From: an uncultured bacterium
GTDB taxonomy: Bacteria; Latescibacterota; MVCY01
NCBI GenBank assembly: GCA_964595705.1
Contig: CAZQSC010000001.1
Span: 1 to 43,809 of the forward strand
DNA: 43,809 bases
Reading direction: 5' to 3'
Shown here piece after piece: positions 3,175 through 30,302 of the stretch (positions are counted from its first letter, which is position 1; every line of letters begins with the position of its first letter). The position numbers and the translations under genes are program-made. The notes under the pieces are model-generated. The model was not told where the DNA came from. It worked only from the letters and a program-made list of their open reading frames with translations, and searched no databases.

Positions 3175-3303
3175 AATAAAGCGATATATCAACAGCTACA
3201 ATCCTAACGCTCACGGGAGGTGGTGTCATGACTATCTTCTAAATTCGAGGAAAGGGGAGAAGTGAATAGATACTTAATCAAGTTTTCAAAAAAGGAGTCA
3301 GAG

Positions 3304-4719
3304 ATGAAAAAGTCGATAGTGGTATTCTTGACGTTTGTCTTCCTTCTGAGCTGTGCTGCGCAAGCGCTCGCGTCGTCTGAGGCCGAGGAGAATCCGAAGA
3401 AGATAGATGTATCGGGCAAGATCATCTACCGGGGACGTTGGTACAACCTGGACTTCAACGATGACTCCGACAAGGGATCGCTGAACCGGAAGAACTACTA
3501 CGGCGACATCACGCTGACGATGAAGTTCCACCCGATCGAAAATGTGAGCGGATGCTTCCAGTTTTACAAACAGGTGTACGGGACTGGCCTGGCCCAGTAT
3601 AATACGATTCAGACCGGCGAGACCGTAGCGGGGAATTGGGCGGTGAACGAAGATGAGAACTGGGAGATGACGCTGATGCAGGCCTGGGGCAAGGTGGACC
3701 TTCCCTTCGCTCCTGTCTCCCTTAAGGTCGGACGACAGCCGTTGGTGTTCGGAAACGGGCTCTATCTGAACACAGGGATCAGCAAAACGTTTGCTATGGT
3801 GGCCGATGCCTGCTTGCCTTTTGCAAAGGTCTCTGTGGGTACAGCCAAGCTCTACGAGGGAGTCCGCGAAGCAGATGACGACGCGGACATCAACTTCGTT
3901 ACGGTGAACAAGACCGTGGGGCCTCACAACTTAGGCCTCTTCGTCGCCCACGAGAAGGACATTTCTTCCTCGAAGGCGGCCCCGGCTGCGGCCATTGTAG
4001 ACAGCCTCGAACGGACGATCACCAACATCGGCGTGACGGGTAAGGGAAAGATCGGTCCTCTCACCTATAAAGCCGAGTTCGACTATATGGTCGGTAAGGA
4101 TAAGTCCACTAAGACGGTGAATCCGGCAGATGTGGACATCGCCGGATATGCCTTTATGGCCGGAGTAGGACTTCCTCCCCTTAGCATCTTCAAGCTGGGG
4201 TTGGAAGTAGGCCTGGGGTCCGGGGATGATGTGGGTACAAAGGACAAGAACGAGGGGTATATCCCGCCGGGACCGTTCTATCCATATGCCTGGGCCTACG
4301 AATATCGGTTCATCCACTGGATCTGGAACAGCTCTCGCTTCCTGAAGGGAACGGTCGGCGTGAGGGAGGCTCTGGCGCCCGGGTTGGAAAACACCACCTA
4401 CTTGAAAGCCTCAGCCAGATGGAAGCTGAACAAATGGCTCAGTGGAGCCGAGCAGTTCATCTACCTGATGGCAACGGAGCCCAAGCCGATTAAAGATAAT
4501 ACCGGGGCCTCCTTTGACCCGGGCAAAAACATCGGCATTGAGATTGATACGATTGTAAATTGCGTCATAAACAAACATTTCTCGTATCAATTCATCTTCG
4601 CTTACGTGCTCCCTGGCAATTTCTTCGATGGGCGCATCAAAGGCTTCGATGCAGCCAACAAACCCATCGGGGCTGACAATGCTTGGGGTATCCGTTCACA
4701 GTTTGCTTTCACCTTCTGA
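3304..4719 (+). CDS. porin-like outer-membrane beta-barrel protein (possibly alginate-export/AlgE-like family)
   Basis: I moved the start to ATG 3304 (AAGGAG SD about 7 nt upstream). This gives the signal peptide MKKSIVVFLTFVFLLSCAAQALA. Other support: a LKVGRQPLVFGNG motif, a strand-like alternating pattern, and the C-terminal ...FAFTF (terminal Phe typical of BAM substrates). Confidence 0.65.
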   Translation: MKKSIVVFLTFVFLLSCAAQALASSEAEENPKKIDVSGKIIYRGRWYNLDFNDDSDKGSLNRKNYYGDITLTMKFHPIENVSGCFQFYKQVYGTGLAQYNTIQTGETVAGNWAVNEDENWEMTLMQAWGKVDLPFAPVSLKVGRQPLVFGNGLYLNTGISKTFAMVADACLPFAKVSVGTAKLYEGVREADDDADINFVTVNKTVGPHNLGLFVAHEKDISSSKAAPAAAIVDSLERTITNIGVTGKGKIGPLTYKAEFDYMVGKDKSTKTVNPADVDIAGYAFMAGVGLPPLSIFKLGLEVGLGSGDDVGTKDKNEGYIPPGPFYPYAWAYEYRFIHWIWNSSRFLKGTVGVREALAPGLENTTYLKASARWKLNKWLSGAEQFIYLMATEPKPIKDNTGASFDPGKNIGIEIDTIVNCVINKHFSYQFIFAYVLPGNFFDGRIKGFDAANKPIGADNAWGIRSQFAFTF

Positions 4720-18680: not shown

Positions 18681-18883
18681 CTATCTCCCTTCGTTCTATT
18701 TATCAGGGCTCATCTCCCTAATGCATTTGTTGTTGATCAGAGATGAGGGAATTAAAAAAGAGAGGTTTTCCCCCTGATCAACCTTTATTAGAGGTGGTAG
18801 TGCACTGGGCCTATCCCTCCAAAATCTGCCGTACCTTATGGGCCAATTGGACAGGGCTAAAGGGGTTGCTCAAAAAAGGGAGG

Positions 18884-18944: not shown

Positions 18945-20279
18945 TTAAAATCGGTAAGTTGCGGTTACAAACAGCCTGTCTGCCTTGTGCTTCTGCGTTA
19001 AATTGCCCTCGGTCTGTTCCCAGCTCCCATGGACCCAGGCAGCGTCGATGGAGAAGACTCTGTCCACCGTGGTGCCCGCACCCAGGGTGAGCCATCTCCT
19101 CTGCTTAGTGGTTCGAATAGCTGAGCCGTAGCCCGATCGGGGGCCAAGATAAGCAACCGGGTCGGTGTAGAACCCCGCCCGCAGTTTTATCTCCGTAAAA
19201 GGCACGGAGACCTCGCCTCCGAAGTGCAGCCTCCAGACCTCCTTATATTTCAGCCGGAAATCGCTACTGCTGCCAAAATCTGAGGGCAAATCTTTATATT
19301 CTGTCTGCTTCCAATCGGCATAATGGGCGCCAAAGGCCAAAATCAGCCCAGGGGTGGTCCAGGAAACTCCAAAGCCAAACTGGTAAGGGAGCTTAACCTT
19401 GTATTCGAGGAAATAGGCCACATCAGGCCAATCCCAGGTAAAGATACTGTCCGGGGTAACAGTTCTGTATTCATCCCACCAGTTCTTCTCCACCTTGTAG
19501 GTTACGGGGGAAGAAACAGTCGCTGCAAATTTAAGACTTCCCTGGCCTTTGAGGATTGTTGCCAGCTTCAGGTTTGTGCCGCTATATTGGTCAGAACAGC
19601 GGATATGGCCGTAGAGGCTGTCCAGATCGGCGTGGACTTGTTTACCGTCGGCCAAGCTTAGATCCCATCTCAGGTTGCTGTCTCCGGTCCAGAAGTTGAT
19701 TGCCCCCCCTACTGAGAGATTGGGAGAAAGGTCGATTGCCCCGGCAACCGACCATGCCCCGATACCACCGTCAATCGTCATATGTTCTTGTTGCTGAAAG
19801 CGAAAGTCGTCATTGTAGCCCAGGGCGGAGGCTCCAAACTCAAAATCTTTCAGCCTGTTAAATCCTATAGCAAAGACAAGGCTGCCCCGAGTGGTGGGAA
19901 CAGGGAGCACTGCACCGATAGAACTCAGGCGGGCGCTGGTAATCTGTTCAGAGTGCGGGGAATCTGGTCTAAAGAGAGAATCCACTTGTCTTTTCCAATA
20001 AGGAAGGAGAGTGCCGGAGAGCTGCATCTGTCTGACTTGGGCAAGTCCTGCTGGATTCCAGTAGAGAGCGGAGAGGTCGTTAGCTACCGCAATGTAAGCC
20101 CCTCCCATCCCCATTGCCCTTGCTCCCAGCCCGCTGAAATTGTCGACAGTAAGTTCCTCGGGACCAAGTAGGGGGTCTTTGTAGTCTAATATCTCCTGGC
20201 AAAACCCACCTCTAGGGAGTAGAATCACCACCATAATAGCTCCCATCAGTGTTCTAATCGTGCTACTTGGAATTCTCAT
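18945..20279 (-). CDS. FadL/TodX/PorV-like outer-membrane beta-barrel protein
   Basis: 444 aa with a signal-like N-terminus. GARAMGMGGAYIAVANDLSALYWNPAGLA is the N-terminal hatch motif shared by FadL-type transporters and PorV-like barrels. The C-terminus is ...VTATYRF. The start overlaps the upstream stop (ATGA). Confidence 0.7.
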   Translation of the reverse strand: MRIPSSTIRTLMGAIMVVILLPRGGFCQEILDYKDPLLGPEELTVDNFSGLGARAMGMGGAYIAVANDLSALYWNPAGLAQVRQMQLSGTLLPYWKRQVDSLFRPDSPHSEQITSARLSSIGAVLPVPTTRGSLVFAIGFNRLKDFEFGASALGYNDDFRFQQQEHMTIDGGIGAWSVAGAIDLSPNLSVGGAINFWTGDSNLRWDLSLADGKQVHADLDSLYGHIRCSDQYSGTNLKLATILKGQGSLKFAATVSSPVTYKVEKNWWDEYRTVTPDSIFTWDWPDVAYFLEYKVKLPYQFGFGVSWTTPGLILAFGAHYADWKQTEYKDLPSDFGSSSDFRLKYKEVWRLHFGGEVSVPFTEIKLRAGFYTDPVAYLGPRSGYGSAIRTTKQRRWLTLGAGTTVDRVFSIDAAWVHGSWEQTEGNLTQKHKADRLFVTATYRF

Positions 20280-20998
20280 CTCTGCCTCGCTTCTTTAGAA
20301 TCTGGCTTTCTCCTCCTTTTGGACGTCTCCTTCTTCTTCTCTTCCTTCTCCTCGGTGGAAGTCCGAGATCTTTTTCTCTCCACGGCTTTTTTCACCTCAG
20401 TTGCCCCCTGGGTCTCCTGTCCTATCACCCTCTTTTCTGAGCGACTCTCTGGCCGGGAACGAATCCAGAGGGATGTTTCTTCCCCAGTGATCGTCTTTTC
20501 GATCTCTGAAGAGGTGCGGGATGTAGCCCTGTCGTATCCCCGTCTTCTGGTAGGTTGGGGTTTCTCCTGCCGGTAGTACCTCTCTCCCCACCAGGGATCC
20601 CAGTAGTAATAGCCTGGATAATCATAATAACCCCAGCTGTAATAGGAGGGGCTATACCAGGGGTGGTAGACCCTAACCCAGTATAGATCATCCCAACAGG
20701 GTTCATACCAGTAATATGTCTCACACCAGTTCCAATAGTCCCAATAAGAGCGCCAGCGGAGGTAAGAAGGCCAGTAAAAGCGCGATCTGAACCAGTATGG
20801 CTCGTCCCAGCCAGGGACATATTGATAGTAGAAATAGTAGTGGTATTCCGGGACGAGCTTCTCTTTCTGTCCCTGAACCACCGGTGGTTCCTCCGATACC
20901 CGGGTGAAAAGCTTCACCTGGGTGTAACAACCGGCAAGGGCAAGCAGCCCCAAGCTGAGCACCACTGTAAGCAGTGCCCTCTTGTTTCCTTTAAACAT
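20276..20998 (-). CDS. lipoprotein with an extremely Tyr/Trp-rich core and a highly charged C-terminal tail (no family recognised)
   Basis: GGAGGTG SD 7 nt upstream of ATG 20998. Signal peptide plus the lipobox LAGC. Residues 52-142 are about half aromatic. The tail is rich in R/K/E/S. The gene is translationally coupled to the downstream barrel gene. Confidence 0.7.
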   Translation of the reverse strand: MFKGNKRALLTVVLSLGLLALAGCYTQVKLFTRVSEEPPVVQGQKEKLVPEYHYYFYYQYVPGWDEPYWFRSRFYWPSYLRWRSYWDYWNWCETYYWYEPCWDDLYWVRVYHPWYSPSYYSWGYYDYPGYYYWDPWWGERYYRQEKPQPTRRRGYDRATSRTSSEIEKTITGEETSLWIRSRPESRSEKRVIGQETQGATEVKKAVERKRSRTSTEEKEEKKKETSKRRRKPDSKEARQR

Positions 20999-21129
20999 AG
21001 AAAACCACCTCCGATAAGCTCAAAGTCTTTTTCTCCCCATCTATAAAACGCCTCAATGGAAGAATAGTTGCATCAGGTTCCTGCAGGCCTAAGATCAGCA
21101 AGATCTTTAACTTGACCAAGAAGGGTAAT

Positions 21130-21202
21130 TTGGTGAGTGGTGAGTTCGCCCTGCCCGGTCACTCACTGATGACTAATGACTGATGACCGATGACTAATGA
21201 CC
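21130..21202. repeat. heptad-repeat intergenic element, copy C
   Basis: TTGGTGA GTGGTGA (21130-21143), a spacer, CACTCAC, then CTGATGA CTAATGA CTGATGA CCGATGA CTAATGA (21166-21200). GTGAGTG (21133-21139) is complementary to CACTCAC (21160-21166). The reverse complement matches copy A. Confidence 0.65.
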
Positions 21203-21215
21203 TATATTAATCTTC

Positions 21216-21971
21216 TCAGAAATATTCTAAATAGACCACCCTCAACTCTCGATTGGGCTTAGAGCTATCCTTGGCATTTCGGAGCAGGTCTTTTACATCC
21301 AGTTCGAGGTTCAGGCGGCTGGCGAATGTCCAGCGCAGACCAGCGTTCAGATAGCCCCCTCCTGAACCTAAAGCATTGGGGCCGTTGTCGTTCTGGGCCA
21401 GGTCGTACTCAGCCAGCACCACTAAGTCTGGCCCTAAGTATTTGTCCAGACCAAAGTAGCCAGAGATGTCTTTATCCTCGTCGCCTTTTTCTAAGCTGTA
21501 ATTAACCCCAGCGTGAAGACCACACGGCCCCAGAAAAGAGTACCCTTTACTGAGAGTTAAATAGAACCCCTTTGACTTGGTGCCATATCTTTTCAGCTCC
21601 TTATGATACTTGCCGAATCCCTGGGAGTCGAAGCCCACTGCCACAGCAGGATAAAGCCCTCCTTCATCGAACAGGCGGATTTTCACTGCCACGCCCACCG
21701 TTGGGTTCCAGACCACGGGTTGATTGCCGATAATCTGGGTGCCGCCGAAGCAAAGTCCTACCAGAAAACTGTCGGTCAGCCCTACATCAACCCCGGCCAG
21801 AATCCCCCCTTCGGAGAACACCCTCAGGTCCAGAGTAAAGCTTCCCCGGGGTAGAAGTCCAGCAGTAGGGCATTCTACCAGATCCTGTGGCTCTATCTCG
21901 CTCTGCTGTGCCCAGCTTAAAGAGCAAAAGACTACAATTGCCAACAACACCAGTGAAAATTTCTTCAACAT
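21216..21971 (-). CDS. small outer-membrane beta-barrel protein (family not recognised)
   Basis: 251 aa. Signal peptide MLKKFSLVLLAIVVFCSLSWAQ, alternating-strand pattern, and C-terminal ...RVVYLEYF with a terminal Phe. Confidence 0.6.
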   Translation of the reverse strand: MLKKFSLVLLAIVVFCSLSWAQQSEIEPQDLVECPTAGLLPRGSFTLDLRVFSEGGILAGVDVGLTDSFLVGLCFGGTQIIGNQPVVWNPTVGVAVKIRLFDEGGLYPAVAVGFDSQGFGKYHKELKRYGTKSKGFYLTLSKGYSFLGPCGLHAGVNYSLEKGDEDKDISGYFGLDKYLGPDLVVLAEYDLAQNDNGPNALGSGGGYLNAGLRWTFASRLNLELDVKDLLRNAKDSSKPNRELRVVYLEYF

Positions 21972-27217: not shown

Positions 27218-28474
27218 TCACTCCAGAACCTCCCTCGGGTCAGAGATCTCCCCTCTCGTGGCCGAATAGGCCGCAGTGGCAGGAGAGCAAAGATAGATGA
27301 ACCCCTTGGGATTGCCCATCCTACCCTTGAAGTTCCGGTTAGCAGTGGAAAGGCAGACCTCGCCATCTGCCAGCACCCCCTGATGCACCCCCACACAGGG
27401 GCCACAGCCTGGAGGAAGCACCGAGGCCCCCGCCGCCACAAAGACATCCAACAACCCCTCCCGCAGAGCATCTAAATAGACTCGCCGAGAGGCAGGACAG
27501 ACAATAAGCCTGGTGCCAGGATGGCAGGTTCTACCTTTGAGAACCTCAGCCACTACCCTCAGGTCCTCCAACCGCCCATTGGTGCAGGTGCCAATAAATA
27601 CTTGATCCACCCTTGTTCCCACCGCCTCCGAGACAGGCTTGGTGTTGTCCACCTGATGGGGGAAACAGATCTGCGGCACCAGTTCAGAGATATTAATCTC
27701 CACAATTCTCTCATACCGGGCATCGGGGTCGGCAGCTATGGGGCTGAAGTCGTCGGCCCTTCCCTGCTCCTCCAGATACTGGCGGGTCACCTCATCGGCC
27801 CCGACCAGGCCTGTCTTGGCACCTGTCTCCACTGCCATATTCGCCAGGGTAAGCCTTTCAGCCATAGACATCCTCTCTACAGTCTCCCCGTCCAGCTCTA
27901 AGGCCTTGTAGGTGGCACCGTCAGCGCCGAGTGTGCCGATAAGGTAGAGAATCAGATCCTTGGCGTAGACACCTGAGGGAAAGGCCCCGGAGACAACTAT
28001 TTTAAAGCTTTCTGGCACCTTAAGCCAGACCTTCCCCAGGGCCACAGCCACCGCTACATCAGTAGAGCCCATCCCGGTGGCAAATGCCCCTAAGGCCCCG
28101 GCGGTGCAAGTGTGGGAGTCAGCTCCGATTATTATGTCTCCCGGACGGGCGTAAGATTCGCTCACAATCTGATGACATACCCCTTGTCCCACATCGGAAA
28201 GCAGAGCGCCTGTCTTCTGAGCGAACTGCCTCAGAGTAACGTGATCATTGGAGAGTTCACGGCGGGGGCTGGGAGCAGCATGGTCGATAAACAGGACCGT
28301 CCGCTCAGGATGGGCCACTCTCCTGGGTCCCATCTGCTCCAGCTCTCTGACTGCCAGGGGACCGGTGCCGTCCTGGAGGAAACAGAGGTCCACATCGGCT
28401 ATCACGAACTCCCCTGCCCTCACTTGCCGCCCGCAATGTCGACTGATAATCTTCTCAGCTAAGGTCATCCCCAC
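27218..28474 (-). CDS. aconitase-family dehydratase large subunit (3-isopropylmalate dehydratase / homoaconitase LeuC/HacA type)
   Basis: 418 aa. MTLAEKI, GADSHTCTAGALGAFA, IGTCTNGRLEDL and PGCGPCVG are the Fe-S cluster and substrate motifs of the short LeuC/HacA type. GTG 28474 or ATG 28468 overlaps the upstream gene end. There is no small-subunit gene in the window. Confidence 0.85.
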   Translation of the reverse strand: MGMTLAEKIISRHCGRQVRAGEFVIADVDLCFLQDGTGPLAVRELEQMGPRRVAHPERTVLFIDHAAPSPRRELSNDHVTLRQFAQKTGALLSDVGQGVCHQIVSESYARPGDIIIGADSHTCTAGALGAFATGMGSTDVAVAVALGKVWLKVPESFKIVVSGAFPSGVYAKDLILYLIGTLGADGATYKALELDGETVERMSMAERLTLANMAVETGAKTGLVGADEVTRQYLEEQGRADDFSPIAADPDARYERIVEINISELVPQICFPHQVDNTKPVSEAVGTRVDQVFIGTCTNGRLEDLRVVAEVLKGRTCHPGTRLIVCPASRRVYLDALREGLLDVFVAAGASVLPPGCGPCVGVHQGVLADGEVCLSTANRNFKGRMGNPKGFIYLCSPATAAYSATRGEISDPREVLE

Positions 28475-30302
28475 GGCTCTGCTCCTCTAGTTTAACCAGA
28501 TCTTCAAACTTAAGGTCGAACTCCAGCACTCCGATTATCTCTTCGTCCTGGTCTCTAATCGGGGCAGAGACGGTGATGCATAGGGCTCCTGTGACGGCTG
28601 AGGTGTAAAGTCCCGTCACATAAGTCCTCCCGCTCTTCAGCGGCCCGATAAACCACTCCCGGTCGGAGAAATCATCCCCAATGCGGTGGTATTCGTATTT
28701 TGCTTTATCCACCGGTTGAGTGATATTTCTGGTAACCCTTCTGCCTTCTTTATCAGTGACGGCTATCAACTGTACATAAGGATTCTCTTCGATCACCTTG
28801 GTTAAGAGGGGTTCCTGTTGGGATGGGTCCATTGAACGGATAGCAGGCAGATTCACAACCTCTTCGATAAGCTCCTGGGCCAGCAGACGGGCGTGTGCCT
28901 TTATCCGGTCAAAGTCTGAGATAAACAACTCTGGCAGATATTTCTTCGCCTTCTCCACCATCTCCTCGGTAGAGATACTGGTGACTCTGCCCTCTCTGTA
29001 TTGATCCATCACCCAGTGGTAGATTTTACCTACTCCTGGGTGTCTCTTATCAATCACTCTCTCCCCGGTCAGTTTGAAGTGAGAGTTAATCCAGTAGGCA
29101 ATACCAGCAGTGCCGGATTTGTCGGTGACCATAACTCCAGGAGGCCGATTCAGGATCTTAGTAGTGTCAAAGATATTGTATATCTCCTCATTTTTGCTGA
29201 TCCCGTCGGCGTGGATGCCGGCCCTGGTGAAATTAAACTCTGACCCCACAAAAGGATAGTTAGCAGGGATTGAGGCTTTGACCTCGTTTCTGAAGTAGTC
29301 GGCGATCTCGGTGATCACGGTGGTATCCACTCCGTTGGTCTCGCCCTGCAGGGCGATATATTCGATAATCAGCCCCTCGATAGGGGGATTGCCGCATCTT
29401 TCTCCGAAGCCCAGGAGTGTCCCGTTGGCAGCGGCACAGCCGTGGAGCCAGGCAGCCTCGCTGTTAATCAGGGCCTTGTGGAAATCGTTGTGCCCATGCC
29501 ACTCCAAGGCATAAGAGGGAACACCAGCCTCATGAATCATAGCGTGCACCATCTTAGGGATGCCCCGAGGCAGGGCTGCCTCCGGGTAGGGAAGGCCATA
29601 TCCCATAGTGTCACAAAGTCTTATCTTAATTGGCGGGCCTCCTAATGCCTCCTCCCCCACCTCCTCGTAAATCCTCATCAACTGCTGGGCAAAGGGGATG
29701 ATAAAGCCGGGGAAATCGGCCCTGGTGATGTCTTCCATGTGGCATCTTATCCGCACCCCGGCATCCATTGCCTCTTTTACAATGGCTAAATAAACCTCTA
29801 AGGCGGTTTCTCTGTCCATACCCAGTTTAAGAAAGATATGGTAGTCAGAGGCAGAGGTGAGCACCCCTGTCTCTTTCAGCCCCATCTGTTTTACCAGTTG
29901 AAAATCGGACTTCACTGCCCTTATCCATCCAGTAACCTCTGGATATTTATATCCCCTTTCCAGGCATTGTTGTACTGCCTCTTTGTCCCCGTGGCTGTAA
30001 AGAAAGAATTCGCACTGTCGGATCACACCTTGGGGGCCACCCAGTCGGTGTAGCATGTCGTAGAGATCCACTATTTGCTTAACCGTGTAAGGAGGCCTGG
30101 CCTGTTGACCATCCCTGAAGGTGGTACAGGTTATCCATATCTCATCCGGCAGCTCCACAGGTACTATCACATTGTCAAAAACCATACGGGGCACTTCTGT
30201 GTAGGGGAAGATATCCCTGAACAGGTTGGGCTGTTCTACATCTTCAATCTGGTATTTTGGCCGTTGTGGTTTTATAAGTTTTGATATCCCCATTTTTGGC
30301 AA
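28455..30302 (-). CDS. HMGL-like Claisen-condensing enzyme (LeuA/NifV/Re-citrate-synthase-like) fused to a C-terminal Cache-like ligand-binding domain
   Basis: The N-terminal roughly 475 aa carry NLFRDIFPY, IWITCTTFRDGQQ, EFFLYS, SDYHIFLKL, HMEDITRADF, LCDTMGYG, EWHGHNDF and GERCGN. The last 139 aa (nt 28458-28874) carry the Cache-type pattern SDREWF...G.TYVTGLYTSAVTGALCITVSAPIRD.DEEIIGVLEFDL. An alternative start is ATG 30293. Confidence 0.75.
   Translation of the reverse strand: MPKMGISKLIKPQRPKYQIEDVEQPNLFRDIFPYTEVPRMVFDNVIVPVELPDEIWITCTTFRDGQQARPPYTVKQIVDLYDMLHRLGGPQGVIRQCEFFLYSHGDKEAVQQCLERGYKYPEVTGWIRAVKSDFQLVKQMGLKETGVLTSASDYHIFLKLGMDRETALEVYLAIVKEAMDAGVRIRCHMEDITRADFPGFIIPFAQQLMRIYEEVGEEALGGPPIKIRLCDTMGYGLPYPEAALPRGIPKMVHAMIHEAGVPSYALEWHGHNDFHKALINSEAAWLHGCAAANGTLLGFGERCGNPPIEGLIIEYIALQGETNGVDTTVITEIADYFRNEVKASIPANYPFVGSEFNFTRAGIHADGISKNEEIYNIFDTTKILNRPPGVMVTDKSGTAGIAYWINSHFKLTGERVIDKRHPGVGKIYHWVMDQYREGRVTSISTEEMVEKAKKYLPELFISDFDRIKAHARLLAQELIEEVVNLPAIRSMDPSQQEPLLTKVIEENPYVQLIAVTDKEGRRVTRNITQPVDKAKYEYHRIGDDFSDREWFIGPLKSGRTYVTGLYTSAVTGALCITVSAPIRDQDEEIIGVLEFDLKFEDLVKLEEQSRGDDLS

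Follow-up and report, generated by a model that had tools for sequence, protein, structure and literature searches.

Work published in 2025 has shown FadL-type barrels to be lipoprotein-anchoring platforms in the β-barrel assembly machinery (BAM) of Bacteroidota, where BamG, a barrel of the FadL family, uses a groove or the space between strands to hold the lipidated N-terminal end, highly conserved, of the surface lipoprotein BamH (PMC12611786; PMC12578637). In several FCB phyla the bamG and bamH genes sit next to each other (Ignavibacterium, Salinibacter, Fibrobacter, Gemmatimonas, and Caldithrix), as do the genes of the BamG2H2 paralogues (PMC12611786). Another FadL homologue, PorV, acts as a cargo-binding shuttle for surface-bound proteins (PMC12578637), and in Vibrio cholerae the surface lipoprotein VolA is co-transcribed with a FadL homologue (PMC3656444). 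A different pair of this kind is described here from a 43,809-nt stretch of DNA of an uncultured bacterium of the Latescibacterota (GenBank assembly GCA_964595705.1, contig CAZQSC010000001.1, positions 1 to 43,809; hereafter the window). It consists of a lipoprotein gene (20276-20998, minus strand), whose product is extremely rich in tyrosine and tryptophan, followed by the gene of a 444-aa barrel (18945..20279, minus strand) of the FadL superfamily, distantly similar to BamG and PorV. The reading favored here, to which we give about an even chance, is that the product of the first gene is an outer-membrane lipoprotein serving as dedicated partner subunit of the adjacent BamG/PorV-like barrel.

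Evidence for a link between the two genes comes from their conservation side by side. A search led by the barrel, for which four barrels were combined into a profile, yielded 80 loci among the GTDB species representatives; the titles of their records mention Latescibacterota, Poribacteria, Gemmatimonadota, Calditrichota, KSB1, Zixibacteria, Ignavibacteria, and a few other taxa. The closest named relatives of the window are metagenome-assembled genomes (MAGs) of Candidatus Latescibacterota, and members also occur in MAGs of groups with cultured representatives (Gemmatimonas, Calditrichaceae, and Ignavibacteria). In 75 of the 80 loci, the lipoprotein gene and the barrel gene are immediate neighbors. 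In 56 of the 80, the same-strand gene directly upstream of the barrel encodes a lipoprotein with the signature [GAS]-C-Y-T and an aromatic-rich region, the gap ranging from -11 to +175 nt and 12 of these 56 pairs overlapping by 4 nt or 1 nt. In 19 further complete loci the lipoprotein gene comes immediately downstream of the barrel, so that a loss of the lipoprotein from these loci was rejected; all 19 belong to one barrel clade. Among the remaining barrel loci, four are cut by contig ends and one has its lipoprotein gene 2 kb away; in one barrel locus no lipoprotein gene was seen. The reverse test gave the same picture: a gene of barrel size (422-455 aa) comes next after each of four lipoprotein genes, those of P0006 (found by phmmer) and of P0098, P0105, and P0008 (found with the lipoprotein profile). 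Toluene_X is matched by three of these four barrel-sized genes, while the one following P0008 (426 aa) lacks a Pfam match; the pairing of P0006 with its barrel occurs in an otherwise different neighborhood. In addition, barrel clades and lipoprotein subtypes co-cluster. The pairing spans at least six phyla, two gene orders, and essentially every complete locus. A coupling to the downstream FadL/PorV-like barrel had been suggested from the overlap of the two genes (ATGA, 20276..20279, minus strand), and it has been borne out both by the retention of this overlap in close relatives (L001, L005, and L006) and by the conservation of the pair across phyla.

The lipoprotein gene itself, an open reading frame (ORF) for 240 aa with an ATG start, is a real gene in its annotated frame and is under purifying selection. 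Four close homologues (58-88% identity) were obtained by a word-index search, and the ratio of nonsynonymous to synonymous substitution rates (dN/dS) was calculated for the window lipoprotein against three of them in each of the three frames. In the annotated frame the aromatic core has a dN/dS of 0.148-0.176, the lowest of the three protein segments, whereas the same nucleotides give 0.72-1.58 in the other two frames, which identifies the annotated frame as the coding one. The extreme composition of the product, together with open frames at 20425-20820 and 20721-20930 on the same strand, would suit a frame that is open by chance, or an overlapping gene that has been read in the wrong frame. 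These dN/dS values refute that explanation and reject both alternative frames, and it is next to impossible given also that the Shine-Dalgarno (SD) sequence, the lipobox, and the ATGA overlap are conserved and that the protein family comprises at least 162 clusters. The question of which open frame is constrained, raised by the original prediction, is thus settled in favor of the frame that it had chosen. The other features that it had listed were confirmed as well, with identical counts for the aromatic residues, namely the strong SD sequence (GGAGGTG, 21012-21006) with 7-nt spacing to the ATG at 20998, the lipobox LAGC with Cys24, the aromatic residues of the core, the composition of the tail, and the ATGA overlap, which was read again from the sequence.

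Conservation across five related contigs covers the SD sequence, the start codon, and some 75 nt of upstream sequence. In their alignment this 5' region (20999..21073, minus strand) contains long invariant runs while the remaining intergenic sequence diverges, which suggests a promoter or 5' untranslated region belonging to the lipoprotein/barrel pair. No Rfam match was obtained in the 5' region, and a known RNA was rejected. Farther upstream, between the lipoprotein gene and a gene for a 251-aa protein, a 16-nt direct repeat (ACYGATGACTAATGAC) is present in two copies with 21-nt spacing (21165-21201); it is partly conserved in L001 and L005 and may be an operator.

The window lipoprotein can be divided into five segments, all encoded on the minus strand. 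The signal peptide (residues 1-23, MFKGNKRALLTVVLSLGLLALAG; 20930..20998) has a positively charged n-region, a hydrophobic h-region, and a lipobox L-A-G-C whose last residue is Cys24, features that predict processing by signal peptidase II and lipidation. The mature N-terminus would then read C-Y-T-Q-V-K-L, and its first five residues, from the putatively lipidated Cys24 to Val28 (20915..20929), correspond to the signature found in the family alignments. A charge-neutral spacer (residues 29-51; 20846..20914) leads to an aromatic low-complexity core (residues 52-142; 20573..20845), in which 27 Tyr, 15 Trp, and 3 Phe make up 45 of the 91 residues (49.5%). The protein ends in a fast-evolving basic tail (residues 143-240; 20279..20572, with the stop codon at 20276-20278), whose 98 residues include 18 Arg, 16 Glu, 13 Lys, 11 Thr, and 11 Ser, with a net charge of about +13. 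The only cysteines are those at positions 24, 92, and 101; a conserved disulfide between C92 and C101 was rejected, since the relative P0004 has Arg at the position of C92. The composition of the core is far above chance: the mean Tyr+Trp+Phe content of 31 long ORFs is 8.7%, which gives a binomial P of 7e-24; the second-richest 91-aa window among all stop-free stretches of the six frames has 22 aromatic residues; and 200 shuffles of the window reached a maximum of 21 per 91 aa. An origin of the core from DNA repeats was rejected as well, Tandem Repeats Finder reporting just one 19-nt match with a score of 31.

In the L001/L004 lineage, the tail sequence beyond the motif YYRQE cannot be aligned with that of the window protein, yet it is basic, ends in KRGRKR, and retains the ATGA overlap, so that the tail is conserved in composition and not in sequence. 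A separate observation concerns P0004 (L007, 1575-2350), whose C-terminus looks frameshifted relative to L001; another frame of the same locus restores the ...KKKKPGLDKRGRKR ending and the barrel start, and the anomaly is either an assembly error or a genuine frameshift.

By its sequence, the window lipoprotein belongs to an unnamed family, for which the name CYT lipoproteins is coined here. A profile of 28 diverse members, run against 5.8 billion sequences, found at least 162 clusters at E<=0.01, all of them without a name or a Pfam domain ("hypothetical"). The proteins of the window are recorded by NCBI on a 52-kb contig without names, and those clustering with them are annotated as "hypothetical protein". 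Exhaustive phmmer searches added one genuine distant relative, P0006 (31% identity), with a GCYTQ start, an aromatic core, and a Ser/Arg tail; another phmmer match, P0005, was discarded as spurious, being an 832-aa repeat protein aligned in 14 short stretches. The impression that no characterised family was involved has held: the lipoprotein has no Pfam match at E<=0.01 or at E<=0.1, including the YXWGXW/WXXGXW aromatic repeat families that had been put forward for a profile hidden Markov model check; NCBIfam gave no match for it, and neither database gave one for 10 other members; the PDB profile search returned only a chance ribosomal-protein match at E 0.88; and full-text literature searches yielded no description of the family.

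The anatomy of the family was derived from 121 database relatives that were fetched, with segment and tail statistics over 171 members. All 121 relatives have a lipobox followed by Cys-Tyr-Thr; position +4 is Gln in 97, Val in 11, and Lys in 10, and position +5 is Leu, Ile, or Val. In fact, G-C-Y-T are essentially the sole invariant columns of the alignments (A5, A6, and A7), and the window protein, with CYTQV, fits the family definition (Gln, Lys, Arg, or Val at +4 and Leu, Ile, or Val at +5). This signature does not seem to be a general feature of lipoproteins in these genomes, since Tyr-Thr at +2/+3 is absent from the 12 other putative lipoproteins in 843 kb of the loci, a small sample. The spacer has a median of 52 aa, 17% Glu, 9% Asp, and a median net charge of -6; it is usually acidic in the family and charge-neutral in the window protein. 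The core has a median of 71 aa with 32% Tyr, 11% Pro, 10% Arg, 8% Gly, and 5% Trp; the richest 80-aa window holds a median of 31 aromatic residues across the family, the subfamily of the window protein being the most Trp-rich (15-16 Trp). Finally, the tail has a median of 48 aa, with 20% Arg and 18.5% Ser, and a C-terminal Lys/Arg cluster is present in 155 of the 171 members.

The mature chain is predicted to be disordered, or to fold only on its partner. The AlphaFold2 model of the lipoprotein, obtained with a 48-sequence alignment, has a mean predicted local distance difference test score (pLDDT) of 52.6, and its core, with values of 41-48, lacks secondary structure; the signal peptide is the sole helix and the sole confident segment. 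The replacement of the tail by an unrelated basic sequence in a sister lineage has been counted as further support for disorder.

A redox function was weighed as well. A CxxCH motif lies about 27 residues past the lipidated Cys in 14 of the 121 relatives (P0097, P0102-P0107, P0109, P0113, P0114, P0118, and P0120-P0122), and in every one of these the residue at +7 is His (pattern CYT[VIL]x[KQV]HP). Of the members taken from the loci (L010, L020, L024, L028, L030, L051, L088, and L090), L088 is the exception to this histidine (CYTVLMSP). One CxxCH-bearing member of alignment A5 matches Pfam Cytochrom_C at E 7e-4, and the subgroup may have a mono-heme c site beside its lipid anchor. A heme beside a Tyr/Trp-rich chain is an arrangement in which hole hopping is discussed, and the chains might accordingly form a path for hole hopping or radical transfer at the outer membrane, one of the roles first proposed for the window protein. 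This function is, nonetheless, highly improbable: the window protein and about 88% of the family lack CxxCH or another cofactor motif, the predicted disorder implies no fixed Tyr/Trp spacing, and no redox partners are found in the neighborhoods. A broader version, a long shot too, sees in the whole family a Tyr/Trp "wire" or an element of radical chemistry, anchored by its lipid and kept at the outer membrane by the FadL-like barrel. In it, a heme bound covalently in the CxxCH/His+7 subgroup, beside the anchor, would feed the aromatic chain or be protected by it; the chemistry could be hole hopping or a peroxidase-type dityrosine cross-linking that builds a surface matrix; and the heme-less, extremely Trp-rich window protein would be a derived version that runs the same chemistry with an external oxidant.

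Regarding the barrel, its relationships are those of a member of the FadL superfamily that is close to none of the named families. Toluene_X (PF03349) scores 28.2 bits over residues 48-423, against a gathering threshold of 29.7, and relatives of the barrel carry precomputed Toluene_X matches; one member of the clade has been named "outer membrane protein transport protein" by NCBI. The BamG model (NF053685) covers residues 54-371, and it is the sole curated model covering most of the barrel, also in 10 of 10 diverse members, whereas PorV_fam (55 bits) matches the N-terminal segment only. In the PDB, the barrel profile matches 9hiv_F best (E 2e-6), a 431-aa "outer membrane protein" of the BAM complex of B. 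thetaiotaomicron, which we infer to be BamG from the data-availability statement of the paper. The N-terminal segment GxGxRAMGMGGA...NPAGL is strongly conserved, and we take it to be the FadL hatch motif, that is, the barrel's own plug. BamG is set apart from FadL by an N-terminal extension of about 10-12 residues. In the lineage of the window, about 22 residues separate the likely signal cleavage site (placed by eye) from GxGxRA, compared with about 9-10 in most members of the clade. As a side observation, the roughly 12 extra residues of the window-lineage barrels (ILDYKDPLLGPEEL...; residues ~28-49, before the GxGxRA segment) resemble in length the extension of BamG. Because the scores are below the BamG cutoff and the extension appears to be absent from most of the clade, the barrel is best classed, from its sequence, as a distinct clade of the FadL/PorV/BamG superfamily and not as a BamG equivalog.

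The role proposed for the pair draws on these relationships. The lipoprotein and the barrel would form a complex, in which the barrel would recognise the invariant lipidated Cys-Tyr-Thr-Gln-hydrophobic peptide as a docking element; docking through the N-terminus is proposed by analogy with BamH, whose own lipidated and conserved N-terminus is wedged into BamG. In this way the barrel would hold a flexible, aromatic, sticky chain with a polycationic tail at the outer membrane, probably at the cell surface. As to function, one speculation is that the chain handles hydrophobic or amphipathic clients while the envelope is being built, or does so at the surface, instead of taking part in electron transfer. 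The original prediction had advanced three roles, namely a barrel plug or partner, a surface-exposed aromatic adhesive or binding module, and an electron (hole)-hopping element. Of these, that of a barrel partner is the one supported by the conserved synteny; a barrel plug appears unlikely, and hole hopping has no evidence for the window protein, which lacks a redox cofactor motif. BamG and BamH offer the nearest comparison. Both systems have a 14-strand barrel of the FadL family and a lipoprotein with a highly conserved lipidated N-terminus, encoded by adjacent genes; the curated model covering the window barrel best is that of BamG, and the best PDB match is the 431-aa outer membrane protein of 9HIV. 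On the other hand, BamH is a large, folded, two-domain surface lipoprotein (including a carbohydrate-binding-like domain) with acidic residues after its Cys, whereas the window lipoprotein has 217 mature residues, no predicted fold, and Tyr-Thr-Gln after the Cys.

Several points weigh against this partnership. Gene adjacency is equally compatible with a cargo or a substrate relation, and the complex is a proposal. The window barrel scores 50.3 bits with the BamG model and ten members score 42-76, against a cutoff of 250; most barrels of the clade appear to have no N-terminal extension of the BamG type; and folding the barrel without an alignment gave a pLDDT of 30.5 and no usable model. Neither BamH nor any other model shows similarity to the lipoprotein. 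A low pLDDT is no proof of disorder, and the low dN/dS of the core could mean that it folds on its partner. Finally, acidic residues within six positions of the Cys mark the surface lipoproteins of Bacteroidota (PMC12578637), and there are none at these positions in the window lipoprotein.

The invariant N-terminal peptide and the obligate adjacency would be explained equally well if the lipoprotein were cargo, with the barrel as its dedicated translocon or shuttle to the surface and Cys-Tyr-Thr-Gln as the export signal. Once outside, the aromatic, polycationic, and disordered chain would act as an adhesive or matrix element that binds polysaccharide, mineral, or DNA, and the Tyr/Arg/Ser composition of the family, which is typical of sticky, adhesive disordered proteins, agrees with that. 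Barrel genes of the DUF560 type adjoin their cargo genes. DUF560 barrels (TXISS/Slam) export lipoprotein cargo such as NilC (PMC9100927), and the shuttle PorV, itself a FadL homologue, is a further precedent (PMC12578637). This explanation is possible and, on balance, rather unlikely, as the conserved N-terminal segment of the barrel, read as a hatch, would fill the lumen. In FadL-family structures it is indeed this segment that occupies the lumen, and to our knowledge no FadL-family barrel flips lipoproteins.

The same conserved segment bears on the idea of a plug, in which part of the disordered chain would be threaded through the barrel lumen or plug it, with the lipid anchor and the basic tail on opposite sides of the membrane. 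A long flexible chain with oppositely charged blocks and the translational coupling of the two genes would suit this arrangement, which has been proposed for RcsF, its linker threading through the OmpA/C/F barrel, and for LptE with LptD. RcsF does form complexes with outer membrane proteins (PMC7553776). Yet the barrels retain an N-terminal segment, GxGxRAMGMGGA...NPAGL, which, read as their own hatch, leaves little room, and a chain that is 50% Tyr/Trp would be bulky for a 14-strand pore; a lumen plug is therefore improbable. The FadL character of the barrel leads to still another possibility, namely that the aromatic chain captures hydrophobic or aromatic compounds at the surface and hands them to a FadL-type channel. 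The Toluene_X/FadL match, the name "outer membrane protein transport protein" given to a clade member, and the precedent of VolA, co-transcribed with a FadL homologue (PMC3656444), are in line with it. Such a function is improbable nevertheless: the neighborhoods examined contain no genes for fatty-acid or aromatic catabolism and are conserved no further than a module of two or three genes, the lipoprotein has no enzyme or binding fold, and the polycationic tail is left without explanation.

To return to the proposal of a dedicated partner subunit, other systems resemble the pair in single features. VolA is likewise a lipoprotein whose gene is paired with that of a FadL-family barrel; it differs in being a folded lysophospholipase that feeds fatty acids to FadL, while the window lipoprotein has no enzyme fold. 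In the type IX secretion system (T9SS), PorQ and PorV anchor PorZ and PorU. The N-terminus of the window barrel matches the PorV_fam and PorV2 models, a likeness confined to the N-terminal 35-60 residues and below the cutoffs; the lipoprotein has no T9SS C-terminal domain and the window has no T9SS genes. RcsF with OmpA/C/F and the cargo of DUF560 (Slam/TXISS) barrels are lipoproteins with disordered segments that depend functionally on a specific barrel. They involve other barrel families and folded lipoprotein domains, with no sequence relation to the pair. A last resemblance is found within the BAM machine, where extracellular loop 3 (EL3) of B. thetaiotaomicron BamA, under the BAM dome, is a flexible Tyr-rich loop with 13 Tyr in 38 residues plus Gly and Asn (PMC12578637). 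Like the chain proposed for the window lipoprotein, EL3 is a flexible, Tyr-rich segment, not resolved in the structure, at the outer face of an outer-membrane machine. However, it is a loop of BamA itself, far shorter and without Trp enrichment or a basic tail, and the resemblance is only compositional.

A FadL-family barrel with a dedicated lipoprotein is a known kind of system, while a partner that is aromatic and predicted to be disordered is new. Besides what was found in the Bacteroidota BAM machine, there is now a related clade of barrels, present in at least six phyla that have received little study, and it is consistently paired with an entirely different partner: 30-50% aromatic, with an invariant four-residue lipopeptide, a polycationic tail, and no predicted fold. 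If the two do form a complex, outer-membrane machinery would here have an intrinsically disordered aromatic "sticker" as a permanent component, a rare situation, and the pair would be a concrete target for learning how outer membranes are built or decorated beyond the model phyla. As a module of two genes it is clean and amenable to test. Less exotic than the "wire" but still new, another speculative possibility is that the pair belongs to a BAM-type machine outside Bacteroidota in which a disordered protein has taken the place of BamH. It may also be that the genes published as BamG/BamH in Gemmatimonas (GAU_1453/GAU_1452), Ignavibacterium (IALB_1455/IALB_1454), and Caldithrix (Cabys_4206/Cabys_4207 and the unpaired Cabys_3919; PMC12611786) correspond to this cassette or to a paralogue.

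A third gene is conserved beside the pair, so that the module has two or three genes. In the window it lies at 21216..21971 (minus strand) and encodes a 251-aa secreted protein of a 'PTAGL' family, ending in ...YLEYF. Homologues (L012, L014, L022, L024-L026, L029, L030, L032, L034, L037-L041, L043-L045, L048, L050-L052, L054, L077, L080, L083, and L088) share the PTAGL motif and a C-terminal ...Y.E.F. They accompany the barrel gene in 29 of the loci examined: in the 19 loci of the downstream type they immediately precede it, and in 10 others they are close by. Apart from weak matches to YjbH (in 4 of 10 members, E 3e-4 at best) and a single one to DUF5777, the 251-aa protein has no Pfam match, and no relative of it was found in the PDB; an undescribed family of small outer-membrane β-barrels is its probable affiliation. 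In the loci of the downstream order (L012, L014, L022, L025, L026, L029, L032, L034, L037-L041, L043-L045, L048, L050, and L054), the genes run 251-aa gene, barrel, lipoprotein, the last about 100-250 nt past the barrel stop. The lipoproteins of this clade are Tyr/Gly-rich (GYGYDPYY) and have two conserved motifs that are not of low complexity, YVPPGYELVT..EL..LR and AWTQR, both absent from the window protein.

Around the module, the same-strand order of the window is a GldA/GldF/GldG-like ATP-binding cassette (ABC) transporter, a DUF4340 protein, the 251-aa protein, the lipoprotein, the barrel, and a DUF3467 protein. The linkage to the ABC transporter and DUF4340 genes was seen in the closest relatives only and was not retained as part of the module. 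A hairpin followed by a T-run (18759..18775, minus strand), detected by pattern match only, resembles a terminator downstream of the barrel gene and likely marks where the transcription unit ends. Elsewhere the window carries housekeeping genes. Two further ORFs may be mentioned. One, of 615 aa (28455-30302, minus strand), combines an HMGL-like domain (57-335) with a Cache/PDC sensor (478-602), an unusual combination that could represent two genes fused by the mechanical ORF call. The other, of 485 aa (3262-4719, plus strand), matches Alginate_exp, an AlgE-like outer-membrane barrel, and sits upstream of an ABC transporter operon of the branched-chain amino-acid type.

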